Positions 3,490 to 17,994 of a DNA stretch of 64,000 bases are shown here, one piece after another. The notes under the pieces were generated by a model. The model saw only the letters and a list, made by a program, of their open reading frames with translations. It had not been told where the DNA came from and did no database searches. The stretch is taken from contig JACPJT010000007.1 in NCBI GenBank assembly GCA_016187415.1, positions 132,821-196,820 of the forward strand, written 5' to 3'. Source of the stretch: Candidatus Aenigmatarchaeota archaeon. GTDB taxonomy: Archaea; Aenigmatarchaeota; Aenigmatarchaeia; CG10238-14; SCSR01. The translations under genes and the position numbers were made by a program. Numbering within the stretch: position 1 is the first letter of the stretch; each line of letters begins with the position of its first letter.

Positions 3490-3530
3490 GCCCTCCAAAA
3501 CTTTAGAGATTTTTTAATTTTTTCTTATTT

Positions 3531-3566
3531 TAAACGTTCAAACCGAATTCTTTCCTTGCGACACCT
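3531..3566. repeat. Direct repeat copy A, ~36 bp core, similarity decaying to ~48 bp
   Basis: Copy A 'TAAACGTTCAAACCGAATTCTTTCCTTGCGACA' versus copy B 'TAAACGTTCAACCCAAATTCTTTCCTCGCGACA' at 4111. On the minus strand copy A still encodes '...VARKEFGLNV*'. Confidence 0.7.
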
Positions 3567-3619
3567 TGCCGAATTTTTAACCTTTAAATATTAATCGCCA
3601 AATAATAAAGTGATAGAAT

Positions 3620-3817
3620 ATGGTTGAACTTAAAGTTATGGGAAAACACGAGGCCAGATGGGTGACTATATCTACTGATGAATATGAAAGCATGAAAGCT
3701 ACTATAGAAGTTCTATCAGACCCTGAATTAATGAATCAGTTGAGAATGAGTGAAGAAGACATAAAAGCGGGTAGGACAAAGAAATTAAGCAATATTTTAA
3801 AAGAACTTAAACAATAG
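3620..3817 (+). CDS. Phd/YefM-family type II antitoxin
   Basis: The 65-aa product has '...TISTDEYESMKATIEVLSDPELMNQLRMSEEDIKAGR', the characteristic Phd/YefM C-terminal signature. Confidence 0.65.
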   Translation: MVELKVMGKHEARWVTISTDEYESMKATIEVLSDPELMNQLRMSEEDIKAGRTKKLSNILKELKQ

Positions 3818-4075
3818 CTACATTTCATCTTTGTGTTTTAACCCGACTATTGTAACTATTTTTCTTTGATCGTCGATGATATACAGAATTCTATACCTTC
3901 TCTCAAATCTTATTTCCCATACACCTGCTAGTGGTCTTCTCAACGGCTTGCCATAAGCATCAGGCGCCAGTTTCAGCTTTTCTAATCTTTCATTAAGCTC
4001 ATCCAATTGTCTAGTATCTAATTTCTTCTTTTTAATTTCCTTTTCTACGGTTTCAGAGAATTCTATCTCATACAC
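3818..4075 (-). CDS. RelE/ParE-family type II toxin
   Basis: The 85-aa product ends '...PLAGVWEIRFERRYRILYIIDDQRKIVTIVGLKHKDEM', the RelE/StbE fold signature. It is convergent with the YefM gene and their stop codons abut. Confidence 0.65.
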   Translation of the reverse strand: MYEIEFSETVEKEIKKKKLDTRQLDELNERLEKLKLAPDAYGKPLRRPLAGVWEIRFERRYRILYIIDDQRKIVTIVGLKHKDEM

Positions 4076-4109
4076 ATTGATTAATTGGATATAAGATAAA
4101 TTAAATTAT

Positions 4110-4580
4110 CTAAACGTTCAACCCAAATTCTTTCCTCGCGACATCTCTAAGGATTCTTATCAGATTCACAAGCTGGCTTTTCTTTACAGAAACAGCGCCG
4201 ACAGACTTGAACTTGCTGCTTGCCCTTATCAGATGGTCGTGTTTCGTCTGGTTTATTCTCAAAAATTCCTCTTCGCCTTCGTACCTAGGCTGTTTGAAAA
4301 CATCTATCCACAATTTGTCCATGCCGCTCAGGTCAATCCTGCCTACAAACCTGCTCGGACCGACAGAATAGTAAATTTTCGCAGGACCCTTCTCGTCATA
4401 ATTGACTTTCTTTTCAATAAGCATCCTTTCAAGCAATTTAGTCACAGTGTGCCTGTTCAGATCCAATTTTTGCGCAATGTCATGTATCGTCATTCCCCTT
4501 ATGCTTCCATTCAGAGTATCGAAAATCCTCTTTTGATTTTCTGTATCGTATTCAACCTCTTTCGTCGTCTTGAAATTCAT
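4110..4580 (-). CDS. Winged-helix (MarR/TrmB-like) transcriptional regulator
   Basis: The N-terminal wHTH reads 'MTIHDIAQKLDLNRHTVTKLLERMLIEKKV'. Its last ~12 codons are duplicated at 3531-3566. Confidence 0.5.
   Translation of the reverse strand: MNFKTTKEVEYDTENQKRIFDTLNGSIRGMTIHDIAQKLDLNRHTVTKLLERMLIEKKVNYDEKGPAKIYYSVGPSRFVGRIDLSGMDKLWIDVFKQPRYEGEEEFLRINQTKHDHLIRASSKFKSVGAVSVKKSQLVNLIRILRDVARKEFGLNV
4111..4146. repeat. Direct repeat copy B, the 3' end of the regulator gene
   Basis: See copy A. There are 3 mismatches over the 33-bp core. Confidence 0.7.
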
Positions 4581-4734
4581 CTTACCACCTACAATCCACT
4601 TGTATTTCGATAATATAAAGGTGCATGATTAGTGTCTATAAATATGATGTGGGAAATCTACCCACGATAACTTTATATACTACTATTTACAATCTAATGT
4701 ATAGAAATTAAATGATAACAATGGAGGTATACAA

Positions 4735-5376
4735 ATGTCTATAGTAACGGTATTCAAATCCGACAACCTGCCCAGCCCATGGCAAGTTGCGAAATCGCTC
4801 GATGGGCAAAAAATTAATGACGGATGGCTGACAGCCTTCGTTAGCAAATACAACAGGAATGAAATCTGTGTAAACCACTGGTTCTATGAAGATCTGGAAA
4901 ACAGTCTGAAAAAAGTTTTCGACGAGGAAGAAAGCATGGAAGTGGTATCGTATCTTCATCAAAACGGAAAGACGCGCGCTTTGAAGAGAATCTACTGCTT
5001 CATCAACGTTCTAATGAAGACGTTGGAAATATATACAGGCTCAGAAGTAAAATTAAATGAGATTACAACAGGATTGGAAGAGCTGTTAAAAGTAAAATTC
5101 ACGCGAGTGACAATAACTTCTGACAACCTGCAGAAAATATATTCCGAGCATTCAAGCGAACTGAAGCAGGTGATGTTCAAAAACCTTGAAGGTCTCTTTT
5201 ACGAGATTCTGCGCGGAAAATATCTTGAGAACAACGAAAAGTTCAAGCAGTACATGGAAAAATTCCCCGAATCCCTGAGGGTGATAAGCTTCAGACCGAG
5301 GATAAAATTCCTTAACGGGTACAACAAGTACCAAGTGACTTTGAATGGGGATATTGGTTTCACAAGTAACTATTAA
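4735..5376 (+). CDS. Hypothetical protein
   Basis: A 213-aa ORF sits directly upstream of the recombinase gene. No motif was recognised. Confidence 0.4.
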   Translation: MSIVTVFKSDNLPSPWQVAKSLDGQKINDGWLTAFVSKYNRNEICVNHWFYEDLENSLKKVFDEEESMEVVSYLHQNGKTRALKRIYCFINVLMKTLEIYTGSEVKLNEITTGLEELLKVKFTRVTITSDNLQKIYSEHSSELKQVMFKNLEGLFYEILRGKYLENNEKFKQYMEKFPESLRVISFRPRIKFLNGYNKYQVTLNGDIGFTSNY

Positions 5377-5449
5377 CCTTTTTAAATACTTTACTGTCCA
5401 AATAATTATTGTGTACGAAGAAGACGAGATAGACAAACGAATTGATAAG

Positions 5450-6751
5450 ATGCTGGAGTCGCCCGAGTTTACCGAAAATCAGAGAAAGACTGTCAAAAGA
5501 TTCGACCACAATAACGAAGCAGAAGGTATATCCTTATCATGCAGGCATCATTATATCTCTGACTTGAGAACATTTGCAAAATTTCTGAATGAAAATGGGA
5601 GCAAAGGTTTCGAAAACATTACTTACGATGACATTGTGGATTTTATGGCATGGGCTTCCAAGAAGTATGCAAGGGATTCCATTAGAAATTTCGGTGCGGC
5701 TATCAAGAAATTGATGCGAATTCTTGGCAAGTGGGATGTATATCATGCGTATAAAATCCCCAGAAAGAAGCTGAGGGAATTGCCGGAAGTTCTTACTGAA
5801 GATGAAGTCATGAAAATCGCCAAAGCTGCAACAGATACTATGGGAAGAGCTTTGGTTCTTCTTATTTATGAAACAGGCGGACGAGTCGGCGAGATAATAA
5901 ATCTCAAGGTAAAGGATATCGAGTTCACAAAACATTCGGCAAGGATTACTCTGCATGGCAAGACTGGCGATCGTGTTGTGCCTCTGATATTTTCCGTTGA
6001 AGCGTTGCAGACTTGGCTGAACCACCATCCTTTAGGTAATGATGGAAAGGCTTACGTATTCTTTCCAAGGTCTGCAGTAACTTGGAAATGTCCTACATGT
6101 AACACTATTGTGCGAAGGGAGATTAAGAAATCGAAAACTGGCAGGAGCGTTACGAAAAGGTATCTGCCGTTTTGCCCGAAATGCAAGAAGGAGTTTGATT
6201 TGCCCAAACCTTATGTCAAGATGTCAAGGCATGGTGTAAGGAAAAGATTAGTCGAGATGGCTGAGAGAGCTGGACTTAATGGGAAAAGAATCCACCCACA
6301 TTTATTCCGTCATAGCAGATTTACACATTTGACGCTAAAAGGATTAAGTGATTCTGTTTTGCAAAAGTTAGGTGGATGGAGGAAGCGTGAAATGCTGGAT
6401 GTCTACACTCACTTGGGTAACAAGGATGCAATCGAAAGCGTTGAAAAGCTTTATGGAATAATACCAGAAGACAAAATCGATGACACGCCACTGAAGCAGA
6501 AGACATGTCCAAGATGCAGGTACAATAATTCGCCAACTTCAATATTCTGCGGAAGATGCAGTCTGGCTTTGGATATAGAAACTGCGTTGAAAGTGGACGA
6601 AAGGGAGCATGTTAGGAATGAGTGGATGAAAGTCATGATGAAGGACAAGAATATCCGAACCACCATGATTGAAAGGACAGAACAACTAATGGAAGAAAAG
6701 TTACCGAAAGATTTCAAGCAGAAACTTATGCTGATGTTGGGCGAGAGCTGA
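5450..6751 (+). CDS. Tyrosine recombinase/integrase (XerC/D-like phage-integrase family) with two inserted Zn-ribbon modules. The listed ORF starts at 5345; the likely start is Met at 5450.
   Basis: The catalytic signature reads R('GGRVGEI')...K('HGKTGDR')...'HPHLFRHS'...'GGWRK'...'DVYTHL' (Tyr). A CPTC...CPKC ribbon sits between the K and HxxR motifs, and a C-terminal CPRC...CGRC ribbon follows. Confidence 0.75.
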   Translation: MLESPEFTENQRKTVKRFDHNNEAEGISLSCRHHYISDLRTFAKFLNENGSKGFENITYDDIVDFMAWASKKYARDSIRNFGAAIKKLMRILGKWDVYHAYKIPRKKLRELPEVLTEDEVMKIAKAATDTMGRALVLLIYETGGRVGEIINLKVKDIEFTKHSARITLHGKTGDRVVPLIFSVEALQTWLNHHPLGNDGKAYVFFPRSAVTWKCPTCNTIVRREIKKSKTGRSVTKRYLPFCPKCKKEFDLPKPYVKMSRHGVRKRLVEMAERAGLNGKRIHPHLFRHSRFTHLTLKGLSDSVLQKLGGWRKREMLDVYTHLGNKDAIESVEKLYGIIPEDKIDDTPLKQKTCPRCRYNNSPTSIFCGRCSLALDIETALKVDEREHVRNEWMKVMMKDKNIRTTMIERTEQLMEEKLPKDFKQKLMLMLGES

Positions 6752-6784
6752 TCACTTTTCTTTTAAGAAAAGTATTACTAATGT

Positions 6785-7390
6785 ATGGGATTGCACACCA
6801 GGGAAGAAGGAAATAAGTGGTGGAGAAACATCTTGTCAGTACTTGGAGTTACCAATACTTGGAAAATGGGTGCTGAAGGGGAAGAACGGATTATAGAGCA
6901 ATTAAGCAGACTCGATGGATATCATGCGTTTCACGATATCATGCTACCGAGAGAAGTGGCAAATATAGACCATATAGTTGTCGGAAGAAACGGTATCTTT
7001 GCAGTCGAGACCAAGAATTATAAAGGAGAAATATTTTGCATTGGTGACGAATGGAGTAAAAGTAGAGTTGGTAGTTTTGGCATAGAATACAGAGAACCCA
7101 TTACCAGTATCAGCATTCAAGTTAAAAGAAATGCGTACAAACTTAGTGAATTCATAAAGAAACGGCTGAAAACTTTCACATATCTCTCTTCGAGAGTATT
7201 TGTAGTGCCAATTGTCGTCTTCACTAATGATGATTTTGAATTACATTCCCTTCGACCAACAGTAAAAATTGTTAGACCAAGAAGCATAGCTGCAGCTATC
7301 AAAAAGAATGAAATAGAGAAACATTATACCGATGAAGAAATTAAATCCATAGCTACTTTAGTAGGAAAGTACGAGCGTTGGGAAACATGA
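6785..7390 (+). CDS. NERD-domain (nuclease-related) protein
   Basis: 'YHAFHDIMLPREVANIDHIVVGRNGIFAVETKNYKGEI' matches the NERD / PD-(D/E)xK-like core. The start may instead be the internal Met at ~6866. Confidence 0.6.
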   Translation: MGLHTREEGNKWWRNILSVLGVTNTWKMGAEGEERIIEQLSRLDGYHAFHDIMLPREVANIDHIVVGRNGIFAVETKNYKGEIFCIGDEWSKSRVGSFGIEYREPITSISIQVKRNAYKLSEFIKKRLKTFTYLSSRVFVVPIVVFTNDDFELHSLRPTVKIVRPRSIAAAIKKNEIEKHYTDEEIKSIATLVGKYERWET

Positions 7391-7594
7391 AACTATCAAA
7401 GCAGACAATAAGCTTCGTTCTGAAATATTCCGGCATCGGTCTTGCTACAGCATCGCTTATTTACGGGGTCACAAATTATTTCGACATTCGTGTATATAGT
7501 TTGTTATTCCTTGCGATTAGTTTTATTGTAAGCAGTCGGCTGTGGAAGAAATAAATCTCAAGAAAGCTTTCAGACAGTTTGTAAAAGAGAAGAA

Positions 7595-9073
7595 CTACGA
7601 ATATTTGTTTGGTTGAATATTACGAGCAATGCAATTCAACTCGAATTCAAATGTTATACTGGATTTAGGTTCAATTACCATCCATTCTATTGTGAGCTCG
7701 TCGCCTCTCATACTCGGAGAGATATCAGCTAATCCTGTTGATTTGTCTATTAAACTACATGAATTCTTGTTGCAGGCATATTTTTGGAAGATTGTCCTGT
7801 TTGTCATCTCAATACCATTTGCTTCTATAAAACTTATTTCGCATTTATCCCATAAACGCCTATAATTTGCGAATTGATTTAATTCAAAATTTCTAAAATC
7901 TATTTTCGAATTCTCATTATTTTTAACATCCATATAAAATATTCCACCAGAGTCCACAATAGTCGGGGCAGATTCTTTGATTGAGATTATAGATTCAGGA
8001 GCAAATTCGTATCCTTGAATTCTTATGTCCTTTATTTTACTTTTATCAATACCCATGACCCTATCAAATAGAATGATAATTTTATTGTTGTTTTTATTTA
8101 ATTGTATACCCGTTATACCGACCTCTTTTTCCAAACTTTTCAAATATGCCTTGTCGTACTCTCTGAACAAGTTAACCGGATAATATTTATCTGTAGTCTC
8201 CACTACTATGTTAAAGGACTGTTCGAGATTTGTATCATTAGTAATGATGGCTCCATATTCGACGGGTATCCATCCTAAAAACCCGCCATTCGTTATATTG
8301 ATAGATTTTGTGACTTGTTTGTATACTTGCCATAAATGGTTTTCGTTCAATGCTTCTAAAGATACGCCCTTTCCGTCTACATTGTAAGTTACGACCCTTT
8401 CATCATAGTATGTGACTTCAGGAACAAATAAAAGCTTGAATGCGAGAAGCAATACTATAAATACTATACCACCAGTTACTTCTTTGAAGATAATCTTCCT
8501 TGATATGTTTTTAATTGAAAAATTAATTTTCAAGGCAGTTTTTGTTAATGCTAAATAAAGCGTATAAGATATCAGCAAAGGAAAAATAAGCATAACGCTG
8601 AAAAATATTAGCGACTTTGTTAAAAAGCTTAGTTGCGTAAGCCCAATTGTGATAGAAAGTGCAATTAAAATCACCATGAAATTCATTAAGATAAAATTTG
8701 TTTTCTGGATCAAGAGTAATATAAAATCTCTTATTTTTTCTCCAGCGCTGAAAAATTGCAACCATAAGATTGCAGAAAACGTAACTAAAAATATTCTGCT
8801 CCATATGTCTATCGTATGTATAGATACAAGATCGTAAAAGAATAGTGTCCATATCACAGACAGTATAATCATGACAATAAAAGAAAACCAGTAGGCTCCT
8901 ATACCAATAATAGCTGAGAAAAATATTTTATCACTTTCACCTAAGGCTCTCCACCATTCTTTATTTTTAGAAAATAAGACAAAAACAAGTGTATAACCTA
9001 ATAAAAGGCTAAACAATATAGAAAGTGCTGGCATATTCAATGCCGATGCCAAATCAGCTATTTCAAATACCAT
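7595..9073 (-). CDS. Polytopic membrane protein with an extracytoplasmic C-terminal domain
   Basis: The first ~200 of 492 aa hold many hydrophobic helices. Local GC is very low. Confidence 0.45.
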   Translation of the reverse strand: MVFEIADLASALNMPALSILFSLLLGYTLVFVLFSKNKEWWRALGESDKIFFSAIIGIGAYWFSFIVMIILSVIWTLFFYDLVSIHTIDIWSRIFLVTFSAILWLQFFSAGEKIRDFILLLIQKTNFILMNFMVILIALSITIGLTQLSFLTKSLIFFSVMLIFPLLISYTLYLALTKTALKINFSIKNISRKIIFKEVTGGIVFIVLLLAFKLLFVPEVTYYDERVVTYNVDGKGVSLEALNENHLWQVYKQVTKSINITNGGFLGWIPVEYGAIITNDTNLEQSFNIVVETTDKYYPVNLFREYDKAYLKSLEKEVGITGIQLNKNNNKIIILFDRVMGIDKSKIKDIRIQGYEFAPESIISIKESAPTIVDSGGIFYMDVKNNENSKIDFRNFELNQFANYRRLWDKCEISFIEANGIEMTNRTIFQKYACNKNSCSLIDKSTGLADISPSMRGDELTIEWMVIEPKSSITFEFELNCIARNIQPNKYS

Positions 9074-9139
9074 AAATGATAAAATGGGATAAAATCTATT
9101 TAACTATCTCTTCGCACAATAAAAAAGCTCTAAAATTTG

Positions 9140-9469
9140 TCAATTTTTATCCCATTTTAACAGTATCCATTCTCTACATCGATTGCAGCGGATTGATTTA
9201 CTATCTGGGGAAGCTGACATGTCATTTTTGCAATACGGGCATTTGAATCTTGTAGAACCCGTAAACGCATGATAACCGCCTGCGAAAAAGGCAAATGAAA
9301 TAGCAAAAAAACCAAGTCCAGCAAAAAATCCGATTACAGTAATAAAGGCAATAACAGCAATTAGAAGAAAACCAATACCCGCAAAAACCAATATTAAACC
9401 TGCTAATCCTCTCAAAAAAGAGATTTTCGGACGGATTAATGTAATTTCTTTCTTTTTCAAAGAAAACAC
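9140..9469 (-). CDS. Membrane protein with a C-terminal Zn-ribbon
   Basis: Two TM helices are followed by 'CPYCKND...CNRC'. Confidence 0.45.
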   Translation of the reverse strand: MFSLKKKEITLIRPKISFLRGLAGLILVFAGIGFLLIAVIAFITVIGFFAGLGFFAISFAFFAGGYHAFTGSTRFKCPYCKNDMSASPDSKSIRCNRCREWILLKWDKN

Positions 9470-9472
9470 CTT

Positions 9473-10549
9473 TTATTCAAATACCAAAATGTAAGTCACA
9501 AAACTATCATTCTCAAGGGCTCTGCATAACATTTTGTTCTCATAAATTTTGTCCATAACAGTACAAGGTGTTGATAATACCTTCTCTTTTCCAGTGGACA
9601 AATCGTGTATAATTAGTTGCTCATTCACAGCATATCCGTCACTATCCCATCGGAACTTTTGGTAAAATACAAAATTTTTATAAATCATCGGTTTAATTTC
9701 TACAGTGTCTTGCTGTGTAGTAACATGGGTTTCCTCACCAGTAGAAAAGTCGTATGCATAAATGTCATTGTTCATTTTACCGTTCCTATTGTCAGACCAA
9801 ACAATGGTATTTTCATACATGAATGGGCTTGATTGTGCAAGTGAACTTTCTATTATTTGGGTGGAGTTGTCTGGTATGTTGTATACCAAGATATCATCCC
9901 CATAGGTTCCAATCAGTTTATAATCATAGATTTGTGATACGGATATTCCAATAGTATCGGTTGGGTCTGGATCTAAATATAGTCGAGTAGTTTCCTTGCT
10001 CGTTAGATTATAGACATACCACACATAACGGCCATTTTCATCATGTCCTCTCAAAACCAATATTTCATTGTAAAAACCTACCGCTTCTGGTGCAGGTTTG
10101 ATAGTTTTGATTTCAAGCTTCTTTTCTTTGCCACTAATGATGTTATAACTGAATATTTCTCCATATTCAAATCTGTTATCACTCCAAATGATATTATTTC
10201 CATAAATTCGTGGATGATTTTGGTCTGAATTGTCAAAAGTTATCTGGGTGGTTTTGCCAGATGGGATGTCATATAAGAAAATGTCATTGTTGCCAGAAGA
10301 TGAGCCCTCGAAAACAACCTTGTCACCATAGATATCAGAGTTACCAGTGTCGTCAGGTAATTTGATTGTCTTGAATTTACCGAACTCTTCAATTGAAGTT
10401 TCTTTAGTTTCAGTTAGTTGAGAAGACCCTATGGCTTTGCCAGTGATTTTACTCGTTTCGGTTTCTGGCGATGGCACTAAAATGCCTATGGCAACAAGAA
10501 GAAATACAATGACTAAAACTCCAATGCCTATCTTTTTCCACAGATTCAT
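9473..10549 (-). CDS. Secreted WD40-like beta-propeller (PD40/TolB-like) protein
   Basis: An N-terminal TM/signal sequence precedes repeated 'D..IYGD.VV....G..DIFLYDI.SGK..QIT' PD40-like units. Confidence 0.55.
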   Translation of the reverse strand: MNLWKKIGIGVLVIVFLLVAIGILVPSPETETSKITGKAIGSSQLTETKETSIEEFGKFKTIKLPDDTGNSDIYGDKVVFEGSSSGNNDIFLYDIPSGKTTQITFDNSDQNHPRIYGNNIIWSDNRFEYGEIFSYNIISGKEKKLEIKTIKPAPEAVGFYNEILVLRGHDENGRYVWYVYNLTSKETTRLYLDPDPTDTIGISVSQIYDYKLIGTYGDDILVYNIPDNSTQIIESSLAQSSPFMYENTIVWSDNRNGKMNNDIYAYDFSTGEETHVTTQQDTVEIKPMIYKNFVFYQKFRWDSDGYAVNEQLIIHDLSTGKEKVLSTPCTVMDKIYENKMLCRALENDSFVTYILVFE

Positions 10550-10646
10550 TTTAATAGTCTATCGGCAGTCATCCTTATAAATACTATACTCAAAGGATAC
10601 TGAACGTAAGTCAATCAAACTCTTTATCGTAAACTCACTTTAATAT

Positions 10647-10913
10647 ATGTTATGGGATGACGTCAGTTTTGTTCTTGGTAGTCCTTTAGCCAAGAAGATA
10701 CTAATAGTTATAAATGAGTCGAAAGAACCCATCGCTCCTGTCCAGATTTCCAAGCTAACTAAAATACAAAGAACGAATGTTAGCAAAAAGTTGATACCGC
10801 TTGTGGAAAAGAAGCTTGTAATATGTGTTAATCCTGAATCAAGAAAATGGCGGTTTTACGAAATCACTCCGAAAGGTAGAGAAGTTCTGGAGAAATTAAA
10901 CCGAATGCAGTGA
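10647..10913 (+). CDS. Small winged-helix DNA-binding protein
   Basis: The 88-aa product reads 'ISKLTKIQRTNVSKKLIPLVEKKLV...', a wHTH pattern. Confidence 0.45.
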   Translation: MLWDDVSFVLGSPLAKKILIVINESKEPIAPVQISKLTKIQRTNVSKKLIPLVEKKLVICVNPESRKWRFYEITPKGREVLEKLNRMQ

Positions 10914-11365
10914 TTTAACAGTACCAACCCGCCAAGTGGTGATGTACATTTTATCTCTTAAAAATATACCTTCTTTTGTCAGATAATCTTGTAAATTTTG
11001 TTTGTCCGCAAAAGAGAGACACTTAGTACCTTTGTCAATCACCACTTTCAATTAAAAAGGAAATATAGCATTTATTTCGACAAAATATGGATTATTTTTC
11101 TCTCTTTCGATTACTTTTATCTGTTCACTTTGTTAGATATTGTTCTTAGTTTTGGTTTTTTGATTGTATTATTAGGTACAAAAAAGTAGTTTTTTTTGTG
11201 TATGTTTCATGTATTCAAAAGTGTGTAGTGTGTTTGTGGGGATACTCGGAGTAGTCACAATGAATACAAATTGTGGTTTTGCCATTAGGATATGCAGACT
11301 TTTTACAAGTTCTATCTCTGCCCAAAAATGACAATCTAATAAATAAAGAAAATGTATCTAAACTC

Positions 11366-12172
11366 ATGAGTGAGTTAATAAAAGCTGACCAGAAACAACT
11401 TTTGATAGCCACCCTCAACAAAAGGGGATTTATCTTGGAGAAAAAGGCTTGGCAAATTTTGTTCAACTTCAGAATGGAAAGGTCGGGCATACAAGATGCA
11501 CTTTTGGGCATCGAAAGAAATGTGCTAAGAGGCAGGCAAATAGAACCCGATGAAACATCTGAAACAGACTTGGTTTTTCATGGTGCGTATTATGTTGCCA
11601 TCATAGAATGCAAAAGAACCGATTATACTTGGATTTTTACTAAATCTAACAATAGCACGGTAAATATAATATCACACGGTTATGGTGGGGTAAAACGAAG
11701 ACCAAAAAATTTACCAGAGTTTACGGTAGTTGATTCCAACATAGCTGTTATGGTCGAAGGTGATGGTACACTTAGAACCACAAACAAATCAAGTGATTAT
11801 GCCCAAACGTCATATAAGGAAATTGATGATTACGCATACCAGCTTTTAAGGAATTTAGATTCCCGCTTGGGTATTACGGCGGGACATTTTCCAGAGGAGT
11901 TTAACGGTAAAAGCTTTCCTCCGATACTGTTGACAAATGCCAAGTTAGGTGTCTTGGAGTTTGGCGACTCACAAATAAATGATAAAGGAGATTTAACAGA
12001 TTACAATAACTTGTCCGAGTTTCCTTTCTTCGCTTACAATAAACAAGCTATTATGGCGTTCGATCAGAACAATGAAACCGATTTCACCAAAACTATTTTT
12101 ATAGTGAACATCGAGCACCTAAACGAATTTTTGGAACTTTATGGGAGTATGGAAGTTTCGAGGTTTCAGTAG
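11366..12172 (+). CDS. Hypothetical protein with a possible PD-(D/E)xK nuclease core. The ORF is open from 11273.
   Basis: 'ETDLVFHGAYYVAIIECKRTDY' fits a D...E-x-K restriction-endonuclease-like motif. This rests on motif inspection only. Confidence 0.35.
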   Translation: MSELIKADQKQLLIATLNKRGFILEKKAWQILFNFRMERSGIQDALLGIERNVLRGRQIEPDETSETDLVFHGAYYVAIIECKRTDYTWIFTKSNNSTVNIISHGYGGVKRRPKNLPEFTVVDSNIAVMVEGDGTLRTTNKSSDYAQTSYKEIDDYAYQLLRNLDSRLGITAGHFPEEFNGKSFPPILLTNAKLGVLEFGDSQINDKGDLTDYNNLSEFPFFAYNKQAIMAFDQNNETDFTKTIFIVNIEHLNEFLELYGSMEVSRFQ

Positions 12173-12224
12173 AATCTTCGTCGGCTCAAAATCTCACTAA
12201 GATTTGTGTGTGTGGCTTTGAACA

Positions 12225-13049
12225 CTAGCTAAACAATCTTTTAAACTCCTCAGGAATTTCAACAATACGTCTTCGTTTCAACTCAGTGATTTCCTCATAC
12301 TCTTCTTCGATTAGAATATCTGCTAAAAGTAGTGCAAGTCTTTGTGGAAAAATAGTTGTTAGAAGTTTGAATATCAACGTATACGGTATGCATTTGGAAA
12401 CTGTCACACGATAGAAGGATTCTTTATCCCATGTTCTTCCAGTTGCATTATCAGAATACCATTGCCACTTTTCTTCTATACGCCCTAGGACTTTGTCTAA
12501 ACTGTTGAGTGTAGCATCTTTAATTGGGAAAAATTGGTTGAAATGACTCCAAAGTTCATTTTGACTATCATCATATGCATGCCTTTCATAACTTAACTTT
12601 GTACTTACCATATCAATTAGAACAGATTTGACACCATCTACAAAGGAAGAATGTTTGGATACATCTTCTCTCACACTATGGAAATCAAAAAAATATTCAA
12701 GGTAACGAATTTCCTTCTCACTAAATGTTGTCTTGAACTCTTTTTTCATGAAATCGAAAAATGGCTTAAGAGTTCCCCTATAACATTGTGTTGTACGCAT
12801 CCTCACACATTTTTTACCGGAGTTGTAGGTTATGGAGTGCGGTAATTTTCTTATGGTACTTTCTAAATAACTTTCCTTCTGAAATTTTTCCCAGTACTTA
12901 ACAACCAAGGGGATGATTCTCCCTCTTGATTTCTTAACCGCTTTCTTTTCTGTCTTTGGATAGAGCTTGTTCGAAGTAGTAACTGTAGTATTCCAGTCTC
13001 TAAAGAACTCATTAAATATTCTATTTTCAGCAGGATTGTTACTAAGCAT
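12225..13049 (-). CDS. Hypothetical protein
   Basis: The ORF is 274 aa long. No motif was recognised. Confidence 0.4.
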   Translation of the reverse strand: MLSNNPAENRIFNEFFRDWNTTVTTSNKLYPKTEKKAVKKSRGRIIPLVVKYWEKFQKESYLESTIRKLPHSITYNSGKKCVRMRTTQCYRGTLKPFFDFMKKEFKTTFSEKEIRYLEYFFDFHSVREDVSKHSSFVDGVKSVLIDMVSTKLSYERHAYDDSQNELWSHFNQFFPIKDATLNSLDKVLGRIEEKWQWYSDNATGRTWDKESFYRVTVSKCIPYTLIFKLLTTIFPQRLALLLADILIEEEYEEITELKRRRIVEIPEEFKRLFS

Positions 13050-13099
13050 ACCAATTCAGTATAGTAACTGAATTTATAAGCGTTTTCCATTGTCTAATA

Positions 13100-13303
13100 A
13101 TGCAAAACAGAACCAGAGTAATTGGTGTAAGGTTTCAGCCTAAACAGGCAAACTTGTTAGCAGAAGTTTGCGATTCGAGAGGGGAAGACGTATCGGATTT
13201 TGTCAGGAGGTCTGTCTTAACAGAACTGGCAAAGCTGTCTTATTTTGGAGTTTCTGAGAAGAAGGCATTAGGTGTTGTGGGTGTCAAAGATAACAGCGAA
13301 TGA
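13100..13303 (+). CDS. Ribbon-helix-helix (CopG/Arc-like) protein
   Basis: 'RVIGVRFQPKQANLLAEVCDSRGEDVSDFVRRSVLTEL' is the RHH beta-alpha-alpha pattern. It lies immediately upstream of the primase-helicase gene. Confidence 0.5.
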   Translation: MQNRTRVIGVRFQPKQANLLAEVCDSRGEDVSDFVRRSVLTELAKLSYFGVSEKKALGVVGVKDNSE

Positions 13304-13336
13304 AGCGGACGATGAGATTGAGGAACGAGACCCGCC

Positions 13337-15133
13337 GTGGTTCCGTATTTTCCTCGAAGCATACCGGAAGCAGAAAAAATTTTCGGAGGATGTGATTCTA
13401 TTAACGAAGTCATGAAAGCATTACTTGAAATAATCAAGAAGAAGCAAATTACAAAATCTAATCTTTTGCAGGAATTCAAATCAGCTACTCCTGAGTTGGT
13501 AGAGGGTCTACCTAAGAAAGACAATGTGGCCACTACATGGTTGAGCAAACACCTGCATGGTTTTGTTAAAGAAGACAAAGATGGAGTCTTAGTTCTAAAT
13601 CAAGAAGGCAATGAACAACTGAGAAAATTCTTGAACGAGACAGATGAGTATTCCACTCCAGAGAAGTTTTTCCAAAAAGAAGGTAACATCGGTAAATTTG
13701 TGCCGAAGTTATTGGCAGAAGCTATAATGGAAAAGACACAGTTCATCACACTCAACGATACCCAAGAGGTTTATTTTTATGATGCAGTGGAAGGTATTTG
13801 GAAACCCAATGGAGAAACTTTAATCAGGGCAACCGGTACAGTTTTTTTAGAAGATAAGACGCAACAACATTTTTTAAACGAGACTTTGGATTACATAAAG
13901 AGTCGCACGTACAAAGACAGAACTATATTCGATAACCAAAATCCAAACTTCTTACCATTGCAGAATGGCATATTGGATATAGAAAAACGAACATTACTGC
14001 CTTACAATCCCGATTTCTTCTTTACTTCGAAACTCGGAATCAAATACGATCCTGATGTGGACTGCCAGAAAATTAAGAAATTTCTCAGTGAAATAGTATC
14101 ACCGGACGATGTGAATTTGCTAATAGAGACAGCAGGCTACTGTCTTTGGAGGGAGTACCCTATCCAAAAGGCTGTTATGCTGGTTGGTGATGGTGCTAAT
14201 GGCAAGTCGACTTATCTAAGCTTATTAGGTAGATTTATTGGGTCAGAAAATATTGCGTCTGTGTCATTACAAGACTTGGAAAGAAACAGGTTTGCAAGCT
14301 CTAACCTCTACAGAAAACTTGCGAATATCTATGCCGATTTACCAAGTGTGGCATTGAAGAATGTCGGATTGTTTAAGATGCTAACAGGCGGCGACATATT
14401 TGCGGCAGAAAAAAAGTTCAAGAATTCCTTTCAATTCAGAAATCACGCCAAATTAATCTTTTCGGCAAATCAAGTTCCGTACGTCGCCGACGAAACTGGG
14501 GCATTTTATCGTCGGTGGGTTATCATAAATTTTCCCTTTAAATTCGAAGGTGACAAGTCAAATCTGATGATTTTACAGGAACTTGTTACTGAAGATGAAC
14601 TCAGCGGATTTCTTAATCTGGTTATTCCCGCATTAAACAAAGTCTTGAAAGAAGGATTTTCCTACATCAAGTCCACCGAAGAAATCAAGCGAGCTTACAT
14701 ACGTGCAAGCGATCCGATTGCAGCATTTGCAAGTGACTGTCTAATAGAGTCGCCAGAAGACGTTGTACCAAAGGATGATGTGTACAACTCGTATATGAAC
14801 TATTGTAGAATCAACAAGTTGCCTATTGTTGCAAATTCTGCATTTGCCAAAAATCTACGTCGCTATGTTTCAATCAGTGAAACCAGACCTAAAATAGATA
14901 ACGATAGAGTTCAGTGTTGGCAAGGAATTAAGCTGGTCAATCCTGTCAACGATGTCAAGGGTGCTTCCAACCTTAATTCTTTTTCAGTTGTGGGAGAAAG
15001 TAAAATAGAAGATAAGGTTGACATACCTGACGTCTCTGACAATGGTGTTTGTGAATATTGTGGTCAACATACTAAGGTTCAAAAATTCAAAGGTAGGTAC
15101 ATCTGTAAATTATGCATTACGAATGTGGCATAG
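13337..15133 (+). CDS. Plasmid/virus-type primase-helicase (D5 N-terminal-like plus P4-family SF3 helicase C-terminal domain) with a C-terminal Zn-ribbon
   Basis: The Walker A reads 'VMLVGDGANGKSTYLSLL' and the Walker B-like segment reads 'IYADLPSV'. The C-terminus is 'CEYCGQ...CKLC'. The 598-aa length fits archaeal integrated-plasmid replication proteins. Confidence 0.7.
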   Translation: MVPYFPRSIPEAEKIFGGCDSINEVMKALLEIIKKKQITKSNLLQEFKSATPELVEGLPKKDNVATTWLSKHLHGFVKEDKDGVLVLNQEGNEQLRKFLNETDEYSTPEKFFQKEGNIGKFVPKLLAEAIMEKTQFITLNDTQEVYFYDAVEGIWKPNGETLIRATGTVFLEDKTQQHFLNETLDYIKSRTYKDRTIFDNQNPNFLPLQNGILDIEKRTLLPYNPDFFFTSKLGIKYDPDVDCQKIKKFLSEIVSPDDVNLLIETAGYCLWREYPIQKAVMLVGDGANGKSTYLSLLGRFIGSENIASVSLQDLERNRFASSNLYRKLANIYADLPSVALKNVGLFKMLTGGDIFAAEKKFKNSFQFRNHAKLIFSANQVPYVADETGAFYRRWVIINFPFKFEGDKSNLMILQELVTEDELSGFLNLVIPALNKVLKEGFSYIKSTEEIKRAYIRASDPIAAFASDCLIESPEDVVPKDDVYNSYMNYCRINKLPIVANSAFAKNLRRYVSISETRPKIDNDRVQCWQGIKLVNPVNDVKGASNLNSFSVVGESKIEDKVDIPDVSDNGVCEYCGQHTKVQKFKGRYICKLCITNVA

Positions 15134-15164
15134 AATATTTATATCTGATCAATAATTATTCTAT

Positions 15165-15695
15165 ATGGAGAGTCGGGAAGAGCTCGAAGAAAAAGTCAAG
15201 AAAGGAATTTATACTGTATCTACTACACCAAGACCAGACTTGCCCAAAGAGGTGCATTATCCGCCATGGATGTATCCTGAAATGTACCCTGAAAGATACC
15301 AAGACCTCAGCAAAATAACTTCAACAGTTAGTGTAAGTGGAACAACAATTATATTCGAAAAACCAACAACAGGTGAGAATTTTGCAGTTTCTATTACTCC
15401 TTCTAAAGACAACACAGAAAGAAGTCTGATAATTACATCTAATGGCAATTTAGTAGAAAAGAAAAAATTATGGGACAGGAACTTAGGCTCTAAAGATGCT
15501 GTAAAGACGTTGATGGAATGGGGCGCTGGGACAAAAGAAATTGGTGAATTAAGCGATTTTATAGATACCAGACTGCGAACTGTCAACATAGAAAAAGAAA
15601 ATCGTGTTCGGGCTGGCTTAGACATATCTGATTCAGGTATATCAGGTAGTGTATCAGCCGAACGAAAGGAAAAGAAAGAGACTGTTAGTTCTTAA
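15165..15695 (+). CDS. Hypothetical protein
   Basis: The ORF is 176 aa long. No motif was recognised. Confidence 0.35.
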   Translation: MESREELEEKVKKGIYTVSTTPRPDLPKEVHYPPWMYPEMYPERYQDLSKITSTVSVSGTTIIFEKPTTGENFAVSITPSKDNTERSLIITSNGNLVEKKKLWDRNLGSKDAVKTLMEWGAGTKEIGELSDFIDTRLRTVNIEKENRVRAGLDISDSGISGSVSAERKEKKETVSS

Positions 15696-15877
15696 TATTC
15701 TGCAAGAAAACTTGTAGCTTTCCTAAAATTTCCGGAATTGTTGACCTTTTGCCGAATGAATGGGGATAAAGGAACTATGAGATTCTCCTCGCCAAATGGG
15801 GATTTCAGCTTCAGACCAAGAATTGAAATACGGCAGCTTACCTTTTTGCTTGCCGCCACTCTCGGTTTTCTTTAAAC

Positions 15878-16348
15878 GTGATTAAAATGAAAAAGAAGAC
15901 GGAAATAAGATTAGAGAGGAAATTCCTATCCGCGCCCCTTCATCATATAGACACTTCGGTAGTCAGAGAAAATCCCACTACCCAAAATGGGAGATATTGC
16001 GTAGCTTATCTGAATATAGTAGGTACTAAATATAGAGGAAAATTTTCTATACCGATGCCGGGAAAATATCTGCTTAGTACATTCAATGTTCATGATTATT
16101 CTAAACGAGTAGATCTTCTCGAAGTCATCTACAGCTTGATTAAAAAAAGAGAAATAGAACTGGTTAGCATAAACAATATAGAAAAAACCACCGAGAGAAT
16201 ATATGGAGCTGATAGACTGATACCCGCTTCCGCAATCGAGGATGATGCTGAAACATTTATTACATTAGATGAAGATTTGATTCATAACGAAACAATAGAA
16301 AGAGAATTCACCATAGAGATAAGGCATCCTAAAGAGAAGTTATCATAA
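15878..16348 (+). CDS. Hypothetical protein
   Basis: The ORF is 156 aa long. No motif was recognised. Confidence 0.35.
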   Translation: MIKMKKKTEIRLERKFLSAPLHHIDTSVVRENPTTQNGRYCVAYLNIVGTKYRGKFSIPMPGKYLLSTFNVHDYSKRVDLLEVIYSLIKKREIELVSINNIEKTTERIYGADRLIPASAIEDDAETFITLDEDLIHNETIEREFTIEIRHPKEKLS

Positions 16349-16495
16349 TCTTAGTTTTTTTTGTACTTTTTGAAGCTCATCAAAAGCGCCACTTTTCAGG
16401 GCCCTTTGATACACTCTTTCCAATTCTGGATCATCAAACATTTTTTTATATTTCATATTATCACACTACAATTAATTCTGTTGTTTATAAATAAA

Positions 16496-16567
16496 TGGGT
16501 CCGTCCAGAATTGAACTGGAGTCTCCACCTTGTAAGGGTGGCATCCTAGCCACTAGACTACGAACCC
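16496..16567 (-). tRNA. tRNA-Val (anticodon TAC), no intron
   Basis: The reverse-strand cloverleaf is GGGTTCG/CGGACCC acceptor, anticodon arm CCACC-CTTACAA-GGTGG, T-arm GACTCC-AGTTCAATTC-TGGA, discriminator A. Confidence 0.8.
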
Positions 16568-16605
16568 GTATGATAAATAAAACTTTCACTATTTAAATTA
16601 TATTA

Positions 16606-17052
16606 ATGAGAATAAGAGAACTAAAACGATCGGATTCTAAAGATATTTCGACCATTTCAAAAATTCTTTCTAAGTATTTTACTCCAGCGGCTAGAAGAAA
16701 TATTAGAAGAGTGTGTAAAACTCAAAATGGTTTTGTAGTAGTTGAGGAAAGAGTAATAGGATTCCTTCTTTACAGAAAATGGAAATACACCGCTGTAATA
16801 ACATGGATGGGGGTTTTGCCAGAATATCAGAATAAAGGAATAGGAAAAAGTTTATTAAAGACTCTTGAAAATGAACTAAGAAAACACGGCATTAGCGAAC
16901 TGAGAGTCTCCACTTTAGCACCGACTGTTAAATATAAGCCGTATGAGAAGACGAGGAGATTTTATTTCAAAAATGGGTTTCAGAAATACAGAATTGATAA
17001 GAAATTTTATCCAGATGGTTCTGACAGGCTTGTTCTTTTGAAGGATATTTAA
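16606..17052 (+). CDS. GNAT-family N-acetyltransferase
   Basis: 'GVLPEYQNKGIGKSLLKTLENELRKHG' is the acetyl-CoA binding motif A. Confidence 0.7.
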   Translation: MRIRELKRSDSKDISTISKILSKYFTPAARRNIRRVCKTQNGFVVVEERVIGFLLYRKWKYTAVITWMGVLPEYQNKGIGKSLLKTLENELRKHGISELRVSTLAPTVKYKPYEKTRRFYFKNGFQKYRIDKKFYPDGSDRLVLLKDI

Positions 17053-17198
17053 TTAAGAAACAAATCAGGTTTTCTAACCGAAACTAGTCGGTATTTGGTT
17101 GCAGTAACCAAAAAAAGTTCTATTTTACTTACTTTGTAAAACATGTGGGAAATGACCCCCTACGAAAAATGGTATAATATAAACTTTAATCTATTTTT

Positions 17199-17843
17199 AT
17201 GGAATTTCCAGACAAGCTAAATAAAAATTTAGCGGAATTCATTGGCATATTGTTAGGCGATGGCTCAATTTCCAACACCTACCAGTATAGAGTTCAGATA
17301 ACTCTGAATGAAAATGAGATTGAATATAGAAAGCATGTTATAAAAACAATAAGAGAACTTTTTAATCTTGAACCTCGAGTATTCTTTAGAAAGGGTGAAA
17401 GAGCAGTAGACATACAATTATTTAACCAAAAATTAATTGATTTCATGATTAATGATATTGGGTTAGTTACAGCACCAAAATGGCAAAGAGCAGTGATACC
17501 ATCTACATATCTAAATACGGATTTGGAAAAAGATATTTTACGAGGATATTTTGATACTGATGGCAGTGTTGTGTTAGCAAAAAATAATGGAACCTTGTAT
17601 CCAAGATTAGAAATGAAAATATCACCATCTCCAATGCAAAAATCATTTATAGAGATTTTAGAAAGGACTGGAATCAGATTCGGAGTGTATAATATAGGAA
17701 GAGGCAAAGTCAGAGTCCAAATTAATGGAATTAAACAAATCCAAAAATGGATGAATCAAATCGGAATTAATAACAAGAATCAATCTGAAAGATTAAAAAA
17801 GATAGCGGGAGAAGGATTTGAACCTTCGACCTCCGGGTTATGA
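17199..17843 (+). CDS. LAGLIDADG-family (double-motif) homing endonuclease-like protein
   Basis: Two LAGLIDADG motifs are present: 'FIGILLGDGSI' and 'LRGYFDTDGSV'. The 3' end overlaps the tRNA-iMet gene on the opposite strand. Confidence 0.65.
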   Translation: MEFPDKLNKNLAEFIGILLGDGSISNTYQYRVQITLNENEIEYRKHVIKTIRELFNLEPRVFFRKGERAVDIQLFNQKLIDFMINDIGLVTAPKWQRAVIPSTYLNTDLEKDILRGYFDTDGSVVLAKNNGTLYPRLEMKISPSPMQKSFIEILERTGIRFGVYNIGRGKVRVQINGIKQIQKWMNQIGINNKNQSERLKKIAGEGFEPSTSGL

Positions 17844-17941
17844 GCCTATCGCAAATGCTACCCTTATAGTAGACATTTTCGACGAGCACTCCAGGCTGCT
17901 CTATCCATATAGGGTTACCCTCGCTATGATAGCATCCCGCT
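17803..17941 (-). tRNA. Initiator tRNA-Met (CAT) with two non-canonical introns
   Basis: The reverse strand reads AGCGGGATG [31-nt insert] GAGCAGCCTGGAGTGCTCGTCG [32-nt insert] GGCTCATAACCCGGAGGTCGAAGGTTCAAATCCTTCTCCCGCT + A. The spliced sequence matches the archaeal tRNAiMet consensus (A1:U72, GGGCUCAUAACCC anticodon arm). Confidence 0.65.
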
Positions 17942-17994
17942 TTTTCAGTATTATGATCCATCCTTTAAATTATTTAAATGGCCTATGTATTTCT

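Follow-up and report, generated by a model that had tools for sequence, protein, structure and literature searches.

In the pRN plasmids, a small CopG/RHH-like gene precedes rep, while pXQ1 and other integrated elements of the pRN type have tRNA genes as targets and carry SSV-type integrases. The cryptic integrated elements (CIE) of Thaumarchaeota (Krupovic et al. 2019, PMC6563490) are multigene elements of ~10 kb that combine a tyrosine integrase with a replication gene of plasmid or virus type. The classical, non-suicidal archaeal integrases that make up the XerA/pNOB8/SNJ2 supergroup (Badel et al. 2021, PMC8371274) pair a SAM-like N-terminal domain with a catalytic domain and leave the int gene intact. 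In the DPANN archaea, mobile elements are sparsely characterized, most being known only via CRISPR-spacer matches or virus-prediction pipelines. [quoted passage not shown]

Here we describe a locus in a 64-kb window (the whole stretch of DNA that was analyzed) of an Aenigmatarchaeota (DPANN) archaeon, for which an integrated mobile element had been proposed. We conclude, with a probability of roughly 80%, that positions 5354–15756 constitute a 10.4-kb cryptic, plasmid-like integrated mobile element. It has an integrase, direct repeats verified by empty sites and no detected virion, casposase or conjugation genes, and accordingly belongs with the CIE sensu PMC6563490, which it resembles in size, multigene content and the pairing of a tyrosine integrase with a plasmid/virus-type replication gene. 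It differs from the Thaumarchaeota CIE in its DPANN host, in its zinc-ribbon integrase, orf274 winged-helix (wHTH) family and primase-less helicase, and in that the target protein is truncated rather than restored on integration. In contrast to the spacer matches of the DPANN survey, as that work is relayed, comparative genomics offers here a base-pair-exact integration site for an Aenigmatarchaeota element, of which attL and attR are known along with seven empty attB sites.

Borders of the insertion and its target gene

Set against its relatives, the block is an insertion: in seven Aenigmatarchaeota genomes or contigs related to this one, the orthologous locus is empty (the empty-site set being L002, L004, L005; L019–L021; L022–L024). 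Only one occupied site is known, the empty ones come from relatives, not from the same strain, and no attP junction of a circular form was seen. The homology of these relatives to the window runs up to 5353, with the DNA break at 5351–5353 on the left, and is found again from 15757, which places the insert at 5354–15756 (10,403 bp). Exactly at each breakpoint stands one copy of a perfect 12-bp direct repeat, TGAATGGGGATA, namely the attL core at 5342..5353 (+) and the attR core at 15757..15768 (+). Across the 64-kb window this sequence occurs only at 5342 and 15757; each empty site has one copy of it. When 40-nt windows were paired at random, 20 of 200,000 trials gave a shared 12-mer. Three independent Logan contigs start at 5324, i.e., 30 nt (k−1) before the first insert base, and the right junction is spanned at 100% identity by contigs from three other sequencing runs (L017, L018 and L028), L028 being 100% identical over 5324–16573.

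The 12-bp core is short. For archaeal integrated elements, att sites as small as 8 bp have been documented, as have insertions in the 3′ ends of protein-coding genes (PMC6563490). We give almost no credence to the repeat being a target-site duplication left by a transposase- or casposase-type insertion: repeats of 12–15 bp can have this origin, as in casposons (PMC6563490), but the element carries neither a transposase nor a Cas1 gene and does not qualify as a transposon or casposon, lacks terminal inverted repeats (within the terminal 120 nt, inverted matches do not exceed 6 nt), and has a tyrosine integrase gene just 57 bp from the repeat.

The insertion splits the 3′ end of orf213 (4735..5376, +), a conserved gene coding for a hypothetical protein, whose homology to the relatives stops at 5353. 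Residues 1–208 show 73–77% amino acid identity to the proteins of L002, L004, L005 and L019–L021, where the gene has ~245 codons, and the last seven codons (IGFTSNY*) are supplied by the element. The displaced 3′ end, 38 codons plus stop, lies in frame and undecayed at 15759..15875 (+; codons 15759–15872) and encodes NGDKGTMRFSSPNGDFSFRPRIEIRQLTFLLAATLGFL, the corresponding C-terminus in L005 being NGDRGTMRFSSPNEQFDFRPRIEVRQLTFLIAATLGFLG. Integration thereby truncates the orf213 product, swapping 38 C-terminal residues for 7; this truncated form was not on record in an exact-protein look-up. In L002 and L004, orf213 adjoins tRNA-Val with no element in between.

The original prediction had drawn a single ~13-kb element over 3531–16567, taking in a toxin–antitoxin (TA) pair, a wHTH gene and all other ORFs, and integrated in pNOB8-type fashion into the 3′ end of tRNA-Val. 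Several features speak for it: tRNA-Val(TAC), at 16496–16567 on the minus strand, does turn its 3′ end toward the block as described, the entire 3.5–18 kb stretch has a lower GC content than the remaining window, and three Logan contigs break at the 5′ end of the tRNA. The expected distal repeat is nevertheless missing, as a repeat search and blastn-short (word size 7) returned no tRNA-Val-derived copy of at least 12 nt anywhere in the window, and when the tRNA was extended by 30 nt at both ends, its best non-self match was 11 nt long and outside the tRNA. Targeting of the tRNA was therefore rejected, the actual breakpoints and repeat being at 5353 and 15757, with 730 bp between element and tRNA. 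Moreover, the wHTH gene (4110–4580, −; 80–93% amino acid identity in close relatives), orf213 and orf156 (15878–16348; 32–54%) are syntenic chromosomal genes in the relatives, and the toxin cassette has separate junctions of its own. This larger element is thus refuted by the empty-site comparison, and we regard it as very improbable.

tRNA-Val, the wHTH gene, orf213, orf156 and the toxin cassette all lie outside the element. Thus, the wHTH regulator listed among the mobile genes exists but belongs to the chromosome, and the supposed YefM/RelE module remains a candidate. Its ParE/RelE-family toxin (3818–4075, −) matches PF05016 (E 5.5e-9, 36.9 bits vs. a cut-off of 23), whereas the ‘YefM’ ORF (3620–3817, +) has only sub-threshold Phd/YefM matches (E 0.03) and is convergent with the toxin gene, so that the two share no operon. 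The cassette (~3566–4145, ~580 bp) is a separate insertion at the 3′ end of the wHTH gene. There is a second independent small insertion, GNAT + LAGLIDADG, and the two lie within 12 kb; in L021 a relic is found at the wHTH 3′ end.

The insert has a GC content of 36.5% as compared to 41.9% in the rest of the window, from which its tetranucleotide composition also deviates. By section, its GC amounts to 39.7%, 33.6%, 35.2% and 38.5%, the lowest value being that of 7451–10600. The AT-rich block that had been pointed out is accordingly real, but low GC runs on into the conserved chromosomal flanks (37.1% in 3501–5353 and 35.9% in 15757–18400), and composition is therefore no marker of the borders. 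This holds a warning as to method: proximity and orientation of a tRNA, along with low GC, pointed to the wrong borders, and the empty-site comparison alone gave the right ones.

As GC is uneven within the insert, the cargo may be a separate acquisition. One could hence read the locus as a genomic island, composite or in decay, that arose at a recombination hotspot through several insertions, one after another, and in which the integrase is a fixed, immobile passenger. The two further small insertions within 12 kb (the TA cassette and GNAT + LAGLIDADG), the L021 relic, and the position of the cargo, which separates int from the replication module whereas the relatives are more compact, would fit this. 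We nonetheless hold it to be distinctly unlikely: the insert is flanked by a single, perfect repeat pair with no att-like repeats found inside it, none of its genes is broken, the displaced end of the target gene shows no decay, and the catalytic set of the integrase is complete.

A zinc-ribbon tyrosine integrase

The integrase (446 aa; 5411..6751, +; GTG start, as in the NCBI call) combines PF00589 and PF02899, matching the former with E 1.8e-27 (96.7 bits vs. a threshold of 27.1). In a 14-sequence alignment R158, K184, H297xxR300, W323 and Y332 are invariant together with four cysteines; judged by this residue set, the recombinase is shown to be catalytically complete, in keeping with the intact tyrosine recombinase originally reported. 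It displays an Xer-like fold with a C-terminal CxxC..CxxC zinc ribbon and, additionally, a lineage-specific insertion of ~45 aa with a second CxxC..CxxC. Among solved structures, XerA comes closest (4a8e, the best PDB match at 1e-17, and 5hxy). The closest homologues found by BLASTP are only 34–37% identical, and no relatives were found in IMG/VR. The gene starts 57 bp from attL and its ORF is full-length; because the core lies upstream of int, outside the ORF, int stays intact after integration, an arrangement that indicates classical (lambda/pNOB8-type) rather than SSV-type suicidal integration.

Two more specific assignments were tried and rejected. The protein scores 118.3 bits against the archaeal XerA equivalog (NF040815; cut-off 220), and at the syntenic locus the seven relatives have no such gene. 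It also falls outside the pNOB8-type subfamily as defined in PMC8371274, since its H297-L-F-R300 motif is the Xer-like HxxR and not R...YxxR...Y. Of the predicted pNOB8/XerC-like integrase, the gene left intact on integration is upheld. While sharing the SAM-like N-terminal and catalytic domains of the XerA, pNOB8 and SNJ2 integrases (PMC8371274), the element's enzyme is set apart by its C-terminal zinc ribbon, common to a DPANN/Methanosarcina-rich clade, by the second zinc-ribbon insertion, which is unique to it, and by a target that is a protein-coding gene, not a tRNA gene or dif site.

The replication module and its DPANN relatives

The element codes for a 573-aa SF3 helicase of the P4/D5 ‘primase C-terminal’ family (13412..15133, +) with matches to PF08706 (D5_N), PF19263 (DUF5906) and PF03288 (Pox_D5). 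At 215.6 bits, against a cut-off of 108.7, it is a member of TIGR01613, the P4/D5 ‘phage/plasmid primase’ family. An uncharacterized N-terminal region is followed by D5_N, the helicase core, the Pox_D5 winged helix and a C-terminal zinc ribbon. The match to phrog_864 covers only positions 172–629 of 1064, and that to PDB 7ola, the best solved-structure match, residues 318–747, i.e., the helicase part only; both start after the primase part and leave ~90 N-terminal residues of the helicase outside. No primase domain was detected with PF09250, PF01807 or PF08708, unlike in the longer relatives, so that the proposed D5/P4-type primase-helicase is upheld as a helicase but not as a primase. A comparison with archaeal plasmids, suggested at the outset, did yield a link: the helicase is 29–38% identical to the Rep of the Sulfolobus islandicus plasmid NC_004853 and of small haloarchaeal plasmids. 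Comparable replicons include those of the pRN family and the P4-type ‘phage/plasmid primase’ ones, and, as in the former, a small CopG/RHH-like gene precedes the helicase gene. In contrast to the pRN family, the element has no detected prim-pol/primase domain and is integrated through its own integrase.

The protein directly upstream of the helicase (67 aa; 13100..13303, +) has the position foreseen for an RHH protein, but its NikA/CopG-like character is suggested by a sub-threshold match (PF21983 NikA-like, E 3e-4, 21 bits vs. a cut-off of 27). Divergent from this RHH–helicase operon is orf274 (12225..13049, −), for which an MSA-based model points to an N-terminal wHTH fold of PadR/ArsR-like type; single-sequence AF2 gave an unusable pLDDT of 46. 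Homologues of orf274 lie divergently beside the helicase gene in the two related loci examined (L025/L027 and L026). From this we infer that orf274 is a DNA-binding regulator or origin-binding protein, and its gene may be the third core gene of such elements. The minus-strand ORFs after int in L012, L014 and L016 show no significant similarity to it by BLASTP or MAFFT; a YRxxLKxxFDF-like patch is all they have in common, and we claim no homology. Nothing convincing in the way of iterons, tandem repeats or a recognizable origin was found in the element. A primase and a polymerase were not found either, and autonomous replication is putative, suggested by the helicase.

Other DPANN loci contain 57–63% identical relatives of the helicase, adjacent to integrases from the same zinc-ribbon family; no relatives of the helicase were found in IMG/VR. 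These loci have candidate 11–13-bp repeats 44–94 bp upstream of int and no tRNA there. The zinc-ribbon integrase clade seems to rely on very short cores located in targets other than tRNA genes. Contig L027, a related sequence of 9.9 kb, gave no sign of circularity, its ends having no overlap. The zinc-ribbon integrase and the helicase-adjacent winged-helix gene might serve as markers with which to mine more such elements.

Cargo genes and the nature of the element

The remaining genes include several ORFans, as had been noted. Next to int lies the predicted NERD nuclease-related gene (6785..7390, +; PF08378, E 1.1e-21), whose product, in PADLOC, weakly resembles the PglW and MkoA NERD domains. 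The product of a 299-aa ORF (11273..12172, +) has a weak NERD match (E 0.022), an ECK motif and otherwise no family, and is probably a second NERD-like/PD-(D/E)xK nuclease. The lowest-GC part of the element contains mem492 (7595..9073, −), a polytopic membrane protein of 492 aa without Pfam, PHROG or PADLOC match, which retrieved only itself in a search of 5.8 billion proteins. It is followed by mem109 (9140..9469, −), a membrane protein of 109 aa that has a zinc ribbon at its C-terminus; it matches phrog_10121 (unknown function; E 5.3e-15) and has no tblastn match in the phage collection. The third of this group is a 358-aa beta-propeller-repeat protein (9473..10549, −; TIGR04275 beta_prop_Msarc, 99.5 bits, cut-off 85) with an additional weak TolB-like match and a putative N-terminal anchor, suggested by its hydrophobic N-terminus. 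We read it as a cellular surface protein, and it may be surface cargo. Taken together, the two NERD-like nucleases and the three membrane/surface proteins make up the cargo. The element further encodes an 88-aa winged-helix regulator (10647..10913, +), which has sub-threshold matches to several wHTH Pfam families and resembles the wHTH of Csa3, and, as its last gene, a 176-aa ORFan (15165..15695, +) with no family in Pfam, NCBIfam or PADLOC. A sigma-70 promoter/terminator scan stayed at background level, its model not being applicable to archaea.

This gene content raises the question of a provirus or virus satellite, in which the three membrane or surface proteins of 7595–10549, along with the ORFans, would serve the virion or the exploitation of a helper and the Int/helicase module would be like that of P4/PICI-type satellites or of small membrane-enveloped archaeal viruses. 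The best structure match of the helicase, 7ola, labeled ‘DNA primase’ in the structure search, is presumably a SaPI replication protein. A candidate 14-kb element in L014, bounded by repeats, contains a helicase relative (57% identical, same integrase family) with a terminase large-subunit gene 0.6 kb downstream. The match of mem109 to a viral PHROG of unknown function points the same way, plasmid-derived satellites of DPANN viruses have already been proposed (bioRxiv 10.1101/2025.02.15.638363), and most ORFs of the element are without functional assignment, leaving room for such a nature. Against this, Pfam, PHROGs and PADLOC reveal no capsid, portal, terminase, Cas1, VirB4 or other virion, packaging or conjugation genes in the element, so that it does not qualify as a provirus; its helicase and integrase have no relatives in IMG/VR, mem492 is an ORFan, and TIGR04275 is described merely as a family of beta-propeller repeat proteins. 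On balance, we consider a viral or satellite nature rather unlikely.

We therefore favor a cryptic, plasmid-like integrated element. We propose that a circular form with attP (right end + TGAATGGGGATA + left end) would recombine with the identical 12-bp attB in orf213, the element's own integrase catalyzing the reaction in the classical lambda/pNOB8-like manner, and that excision would precisely restore the 245-codon orf213. As an episome, it might replicate via the SF3 helicase, with the RHH and orf274 winged-helix proteins recognizing or regulating the origin and host primase and polymerase making up for what it lacks. The nucleases, like the low-GC membrane/surface-protein operon, would be accessory cargo. 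As such the element ranks among the ordinary integrated elements of archaea, unless the membrane cargo proves to be virion or host-attachment machinery. In a bolder version, which we deem unlikely, it would be the integrated form of an undescribed DPANN-specific replicon family, defined by the zinc-ribbon tyrosine integrase, the PadR/ArsR-like winged-helix orf274 and the primase-less D5/SF3 helicase and behaving as a virus or satellite, whose ORFan membrane/beta-propeller operon would either provide envelope or attachment proteins or remodel the surface of the episymbiont. In the event of such surface remodeling, the attachment of the episymbiont to its host cell would be affected.

Borders of the insertion and its target gene

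Related loci were collected by a genome scan with Cdc6 as the query (nine loci) and a metagenome scan with orf213, a conserved hypothetical gene of ~245 codons in relatives (six more). The neighbouring Orc1/Cdc6 (18410–19456, minus strand) shows 67–76% identity to Aenigmatarchaeota MAG proteins, and the helicase of the window is 100% identical, across 96% of its length, to the Aenigmarchaeota MAG protein HYW23_04200. These matches place the host among DPANN archaea known from groundwater-type metagenomes. Empty sites were recovered in related genomes (e.g., L002, L004, L005 and L020). L002 and L004 display the order Cdc6, NUDIX, tRNA-Val, orf213 and wHTH, to which L002 adds DUF378 and a surface protein; L005, L019, L020 and L021 show an uninterrupted row of wHTH, orf213 and orf156, and the orf213/wHTH pairs of L022, L023 and L024 are more distant. 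In the close relatives the wHTH protein is 80–93% identical, orf213 73–77% and orf156 32–54%. Judged by these comparisons, the wHTH gene (4110–4580, minus strand), orf213 and orf156 (15878–16348) are chromosomal genes lying outside any mobile element. All three had been counted within the element by the original prediction, which spanned 3531–16567.

DNA homology with the relatives runs from 4647 to 5351–5353 and resumes at 15757. When both junctions are aligned to three of the empty sites, the 12-bp sequence TGAATGGGGATA stands out at 5342–5353 and 15757–15768, its only two copies on either strand of the window. Each empty site holds a single copy: TGAATGGGGATA in L005 and L020, TGAATGGCGACA in L004 and TGAATGGGGACA in L002. 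Random pairs of 40-nt windows shared a 12-mer in 20 of 200,000 trials. Based on the homology breakpoints and the single-copy state of the repeat in the empty sites, we place the insert at 5354–15756 (10,403 bp). The locus is an insertion bounded by a perfect 12-bp direct repeat, with a tyrosine integrase bearing a complete catalytic set alongside; terminal inverted repeats, a transposase or Cas1 were not found for the element. The insert breaks orf213 ~38 codons ahead of its stop and supplies a new end of seven element-derived codons (IGFTSNY and a stop). The displaced end (15759–15872) translates to NGDKGTMRFSSPNGDFSFRPRIEIRQLTFLLAATLGFL and a stop, and since it still reads close to the C-terminus in L005, the insertion is undecayed; precise excision would restore orf213.

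The same comparison overturns the proposal that tRNA-Val served as the target. The tRNA-Val(TAC) gene itself (16496–16567, minus strand) is found by both ARAGORN and Rfam, but the 12-bp site sits in orf213 and is not tRNA-derived: no part of the tRNA, extended by 30 nt in either direction, has a copy longer than 11 nt in the 64-kb window, and the 11-nt match falls outside the tRNA. The AT-rich block, on the other hand, was correctly perceived, with 33.6% GC at 7451–10600 and 41.9% in the rest of the window beyond the insert.

Independent assemblies recover the same junctions. The Logan contig L028 (SRR12113385, 11,250 nt) equals 5324–16573 at 100% identity, two further runs yield contigs (L029 and L030) that likewise start at 5324, and L017 and L018 cross the right junction at 100% identity. 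Position 5324 lies exactly 30 nt ahead of the first insert base, which equals k-1 for the k-mer size of 31 that we assume for Logan. L005 and L020, both with an empty site, match the 30-mer from 5324 exactly and diverge directly after it. A contig start at this point is the de Bruijn graph break expected if the same samples hold genomes of the same strain or close relatives with an uninterrupted orf213.

Integrase, cargo and replication module

Pfam, NCBIfam and PHROG scans, together with the empty sites, uphold an integrated element that carries both an integrase and a D5-type helicase; the predicted tyrosine recombinase, NERD protein, wHTH protein and several ORFans are likewise borne out by the scans. 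The integrase gene (5411–6751, plus strand) starts 57 bp inside attL, and its GTG start is preceded by a TTTAAATA box ~25 bp upstream. No variation is seen in the catalytic R158, K184, H297xxR300, W323 and Y332 or in a C-terminal CxxC..CxxC zinc ribbon, and a second CxxC..CxxC lies within a ~45-residue insertion peculiar to this integrase. Its closest structures are those of XerA, though its score stays under the XerA equivalog cut-off. The best BLASTP homologues reach just 34–37% identity, and most belong to DPANN lineages (Micrarchaeota among them) or to Methanosarcina. The enzyme belongs to the classical Xer/pNOB8/SNJ2 integrase supergroup (PMC8371274), being neither XerA nor, by motif, pNOB8-type.

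Downstream of the integrase, the cargo comprises the NERD protein (6785–7390, plus strand), a minus-strand operon coding for a beta-propeller protein (TIGR04275), a 109-aa membrane/zinc-ribbon protein (phrog_10121) and a 492-aa polytopic ORFan, a small wHTH protein, and a second, weakly NERD-like ORF. In the replication module, the winged-helix gene orf274 (12225–13049, minus strand) is divergent from those for an RHH-like protein (13100–13303), the D5_N/DUF5906/Pox_D5 helicase (13412–15133, plus strand) and orf176 (15165–15695, plus strand). The assignment of the RHH protein stands on a NikA-like match below threshold. The gene foreseen as a primase-helicase retains the helicase half of that description, with no primase domain detected: its phrog_864 match covers profile positions 172–629 of 1064, and its match to PDB 7ola residues 318–747, both the helicase part only. 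No iterons were found in the element. A search of 1.84 billion representative proteins turned up 22 remote homologues of orf274, and the two examined (L025/L027 and L026) show the same divergent placement beside small ORFs and a D5-type helicase.

Relatives and probable mode of integration

Helicases of 57–63% identity occur at L012 (Aenigmarchaeota JAGVVZ010000006), L014 and L016, each accompanied within a few kb by an integrase of the same zinc-ribbon family and with no tRNA nearby. Candidate flanking repeats in the relatives measure 11–13 bp and lie 44–94 bp upstream of the integrase gene, with the copies of CCTCCAGGGCAT in L012 7.6 kb apart and those of GTGTGCTGGGCA in L014 14 kb apart. 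The 9.9-kb contig L027 (1–9920) codes for an integrase, an orf274-like protein and a D5 helicase. It has a candidate 11-nt direct repeat, ACCCTTTTCGG, ~40 nt from either contig end and 15-nt inverted repeats, AACTCCGGTTTCTAA, directly inside, as is typical of recombinase core sites; its ends show no terminal overlap. The candidate 14-kb repeat-bounded element in L014 (7146–21161) combines the helicase and integrase relatives with a terminase large subunit and RNase H, and may represent a head-tail provirus whose host is a DPANN or related archaeon. Given this terminase, plasmid-like elements share the integrase/helicase module with virus-like ones. Searches of annotated collections align the helicase at 27–38% identity with "P4-family primases" from small haloarchaeal plasmids, from a 7,830-bp Sulfolobus plasmid and from many phages.

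We propose that the attP of a circular element recombined with an identical 12-bp attB in orf213 by classical, non-suicidal, site-specific integration. The SF3 helicase might drive episomal replication with priming left to the host, the RHH and orf274 proteins might bind DNA at the origin or as regulators, and the nucleases and surface proteins would be cargo. A survey of DPANN viruses and unclassified MGEs was reportedly made by Wu et al. in 2024. The element would carry greater weight only if its ORFan membrane operon, or the three-gene core of zinc-ribbon integrase, orf274 and primase-less helicase, marks a DPANN virus or satellite family. It matches the "cryptic integrated elements" of Thaumarchaeota, among which att sites go down to 8 bp in length and 14 of the 68 elements lie in 3′-distal parts of protein genes (PMC6563490).

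Neighbouring insertions and tRNA anomalies

The toxin–antitoxin pair, formerly assigned to the element, belongs, within the region 3490–4165, to a separate ~580-bp insertion that entered the conserved wHTH gene at its 3′ end. This recombinase-less cassette holds a ParE/RelE toxin (3818–4075, minus strand), which the scans confirm, and a convergent ORF (3620–3817, plus strand), whose Phd/YefM match is sub-threshold (E 0.03). A relic at 3490–3566 preserves the original intergenic region and the last ~35 nt of the wHTH gene; the cassette supplies the 3′ end anew (4111–4159, 80% identical) with the C-terminal peptide VARKEFGLNV unchanged. As L021 too has a relic wHTH C-terminus (8916–8978, between DUF378 and the wHTH gene), this 3′ end looks like a recurrent insertion hotspot. 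The wHTH gene and orf213 both serve as insertion sites at their 3′ ends; their products (≤93% and ~75% identity) are better conserved among these genomes than Cdc6 (67–76%) and LysRS (29–71%).

A probable intron-containing tRNA(CAU) lies at 17803–17910 (minus strand), not called by ARAGORN and below the gathering threshold of Rfam. It agrees with the L002 tRNA at positions 5–24 and 62–88, contains a sub-threshold Rfam tRNA match (23.8 bits, 17808–17863), and overlaps the 3′ end of a LAGLIDADG ORF and the TTG-start N-terminus of the NUDIX ORF. Between it and tRNA-Val, 16568–17800 codes for a GNAT acetyltransferase and the LAGLIDADG endonuclease-like ORF; as the two tRNAs are 4 nt apart in L002, these genes form a third variable insertion. 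Four contig breaks coincide with the tRNA-Val 5′ end: three Logan contigs stop at 16567–16573, and a fourth, L001, starts at 16568. In L005, where ARAGORN finds no tRNA-Val at 11047–11957, the gene is apparently split into positions 1–24 (11047–11070) and 57–72 (11942–11957). The ~870 nt between these parts include a LAGLIDADG-like ORF on the opposite strand (11113–11688), and either a giant intron or the insertion of a homing endonuclease could account for the split.
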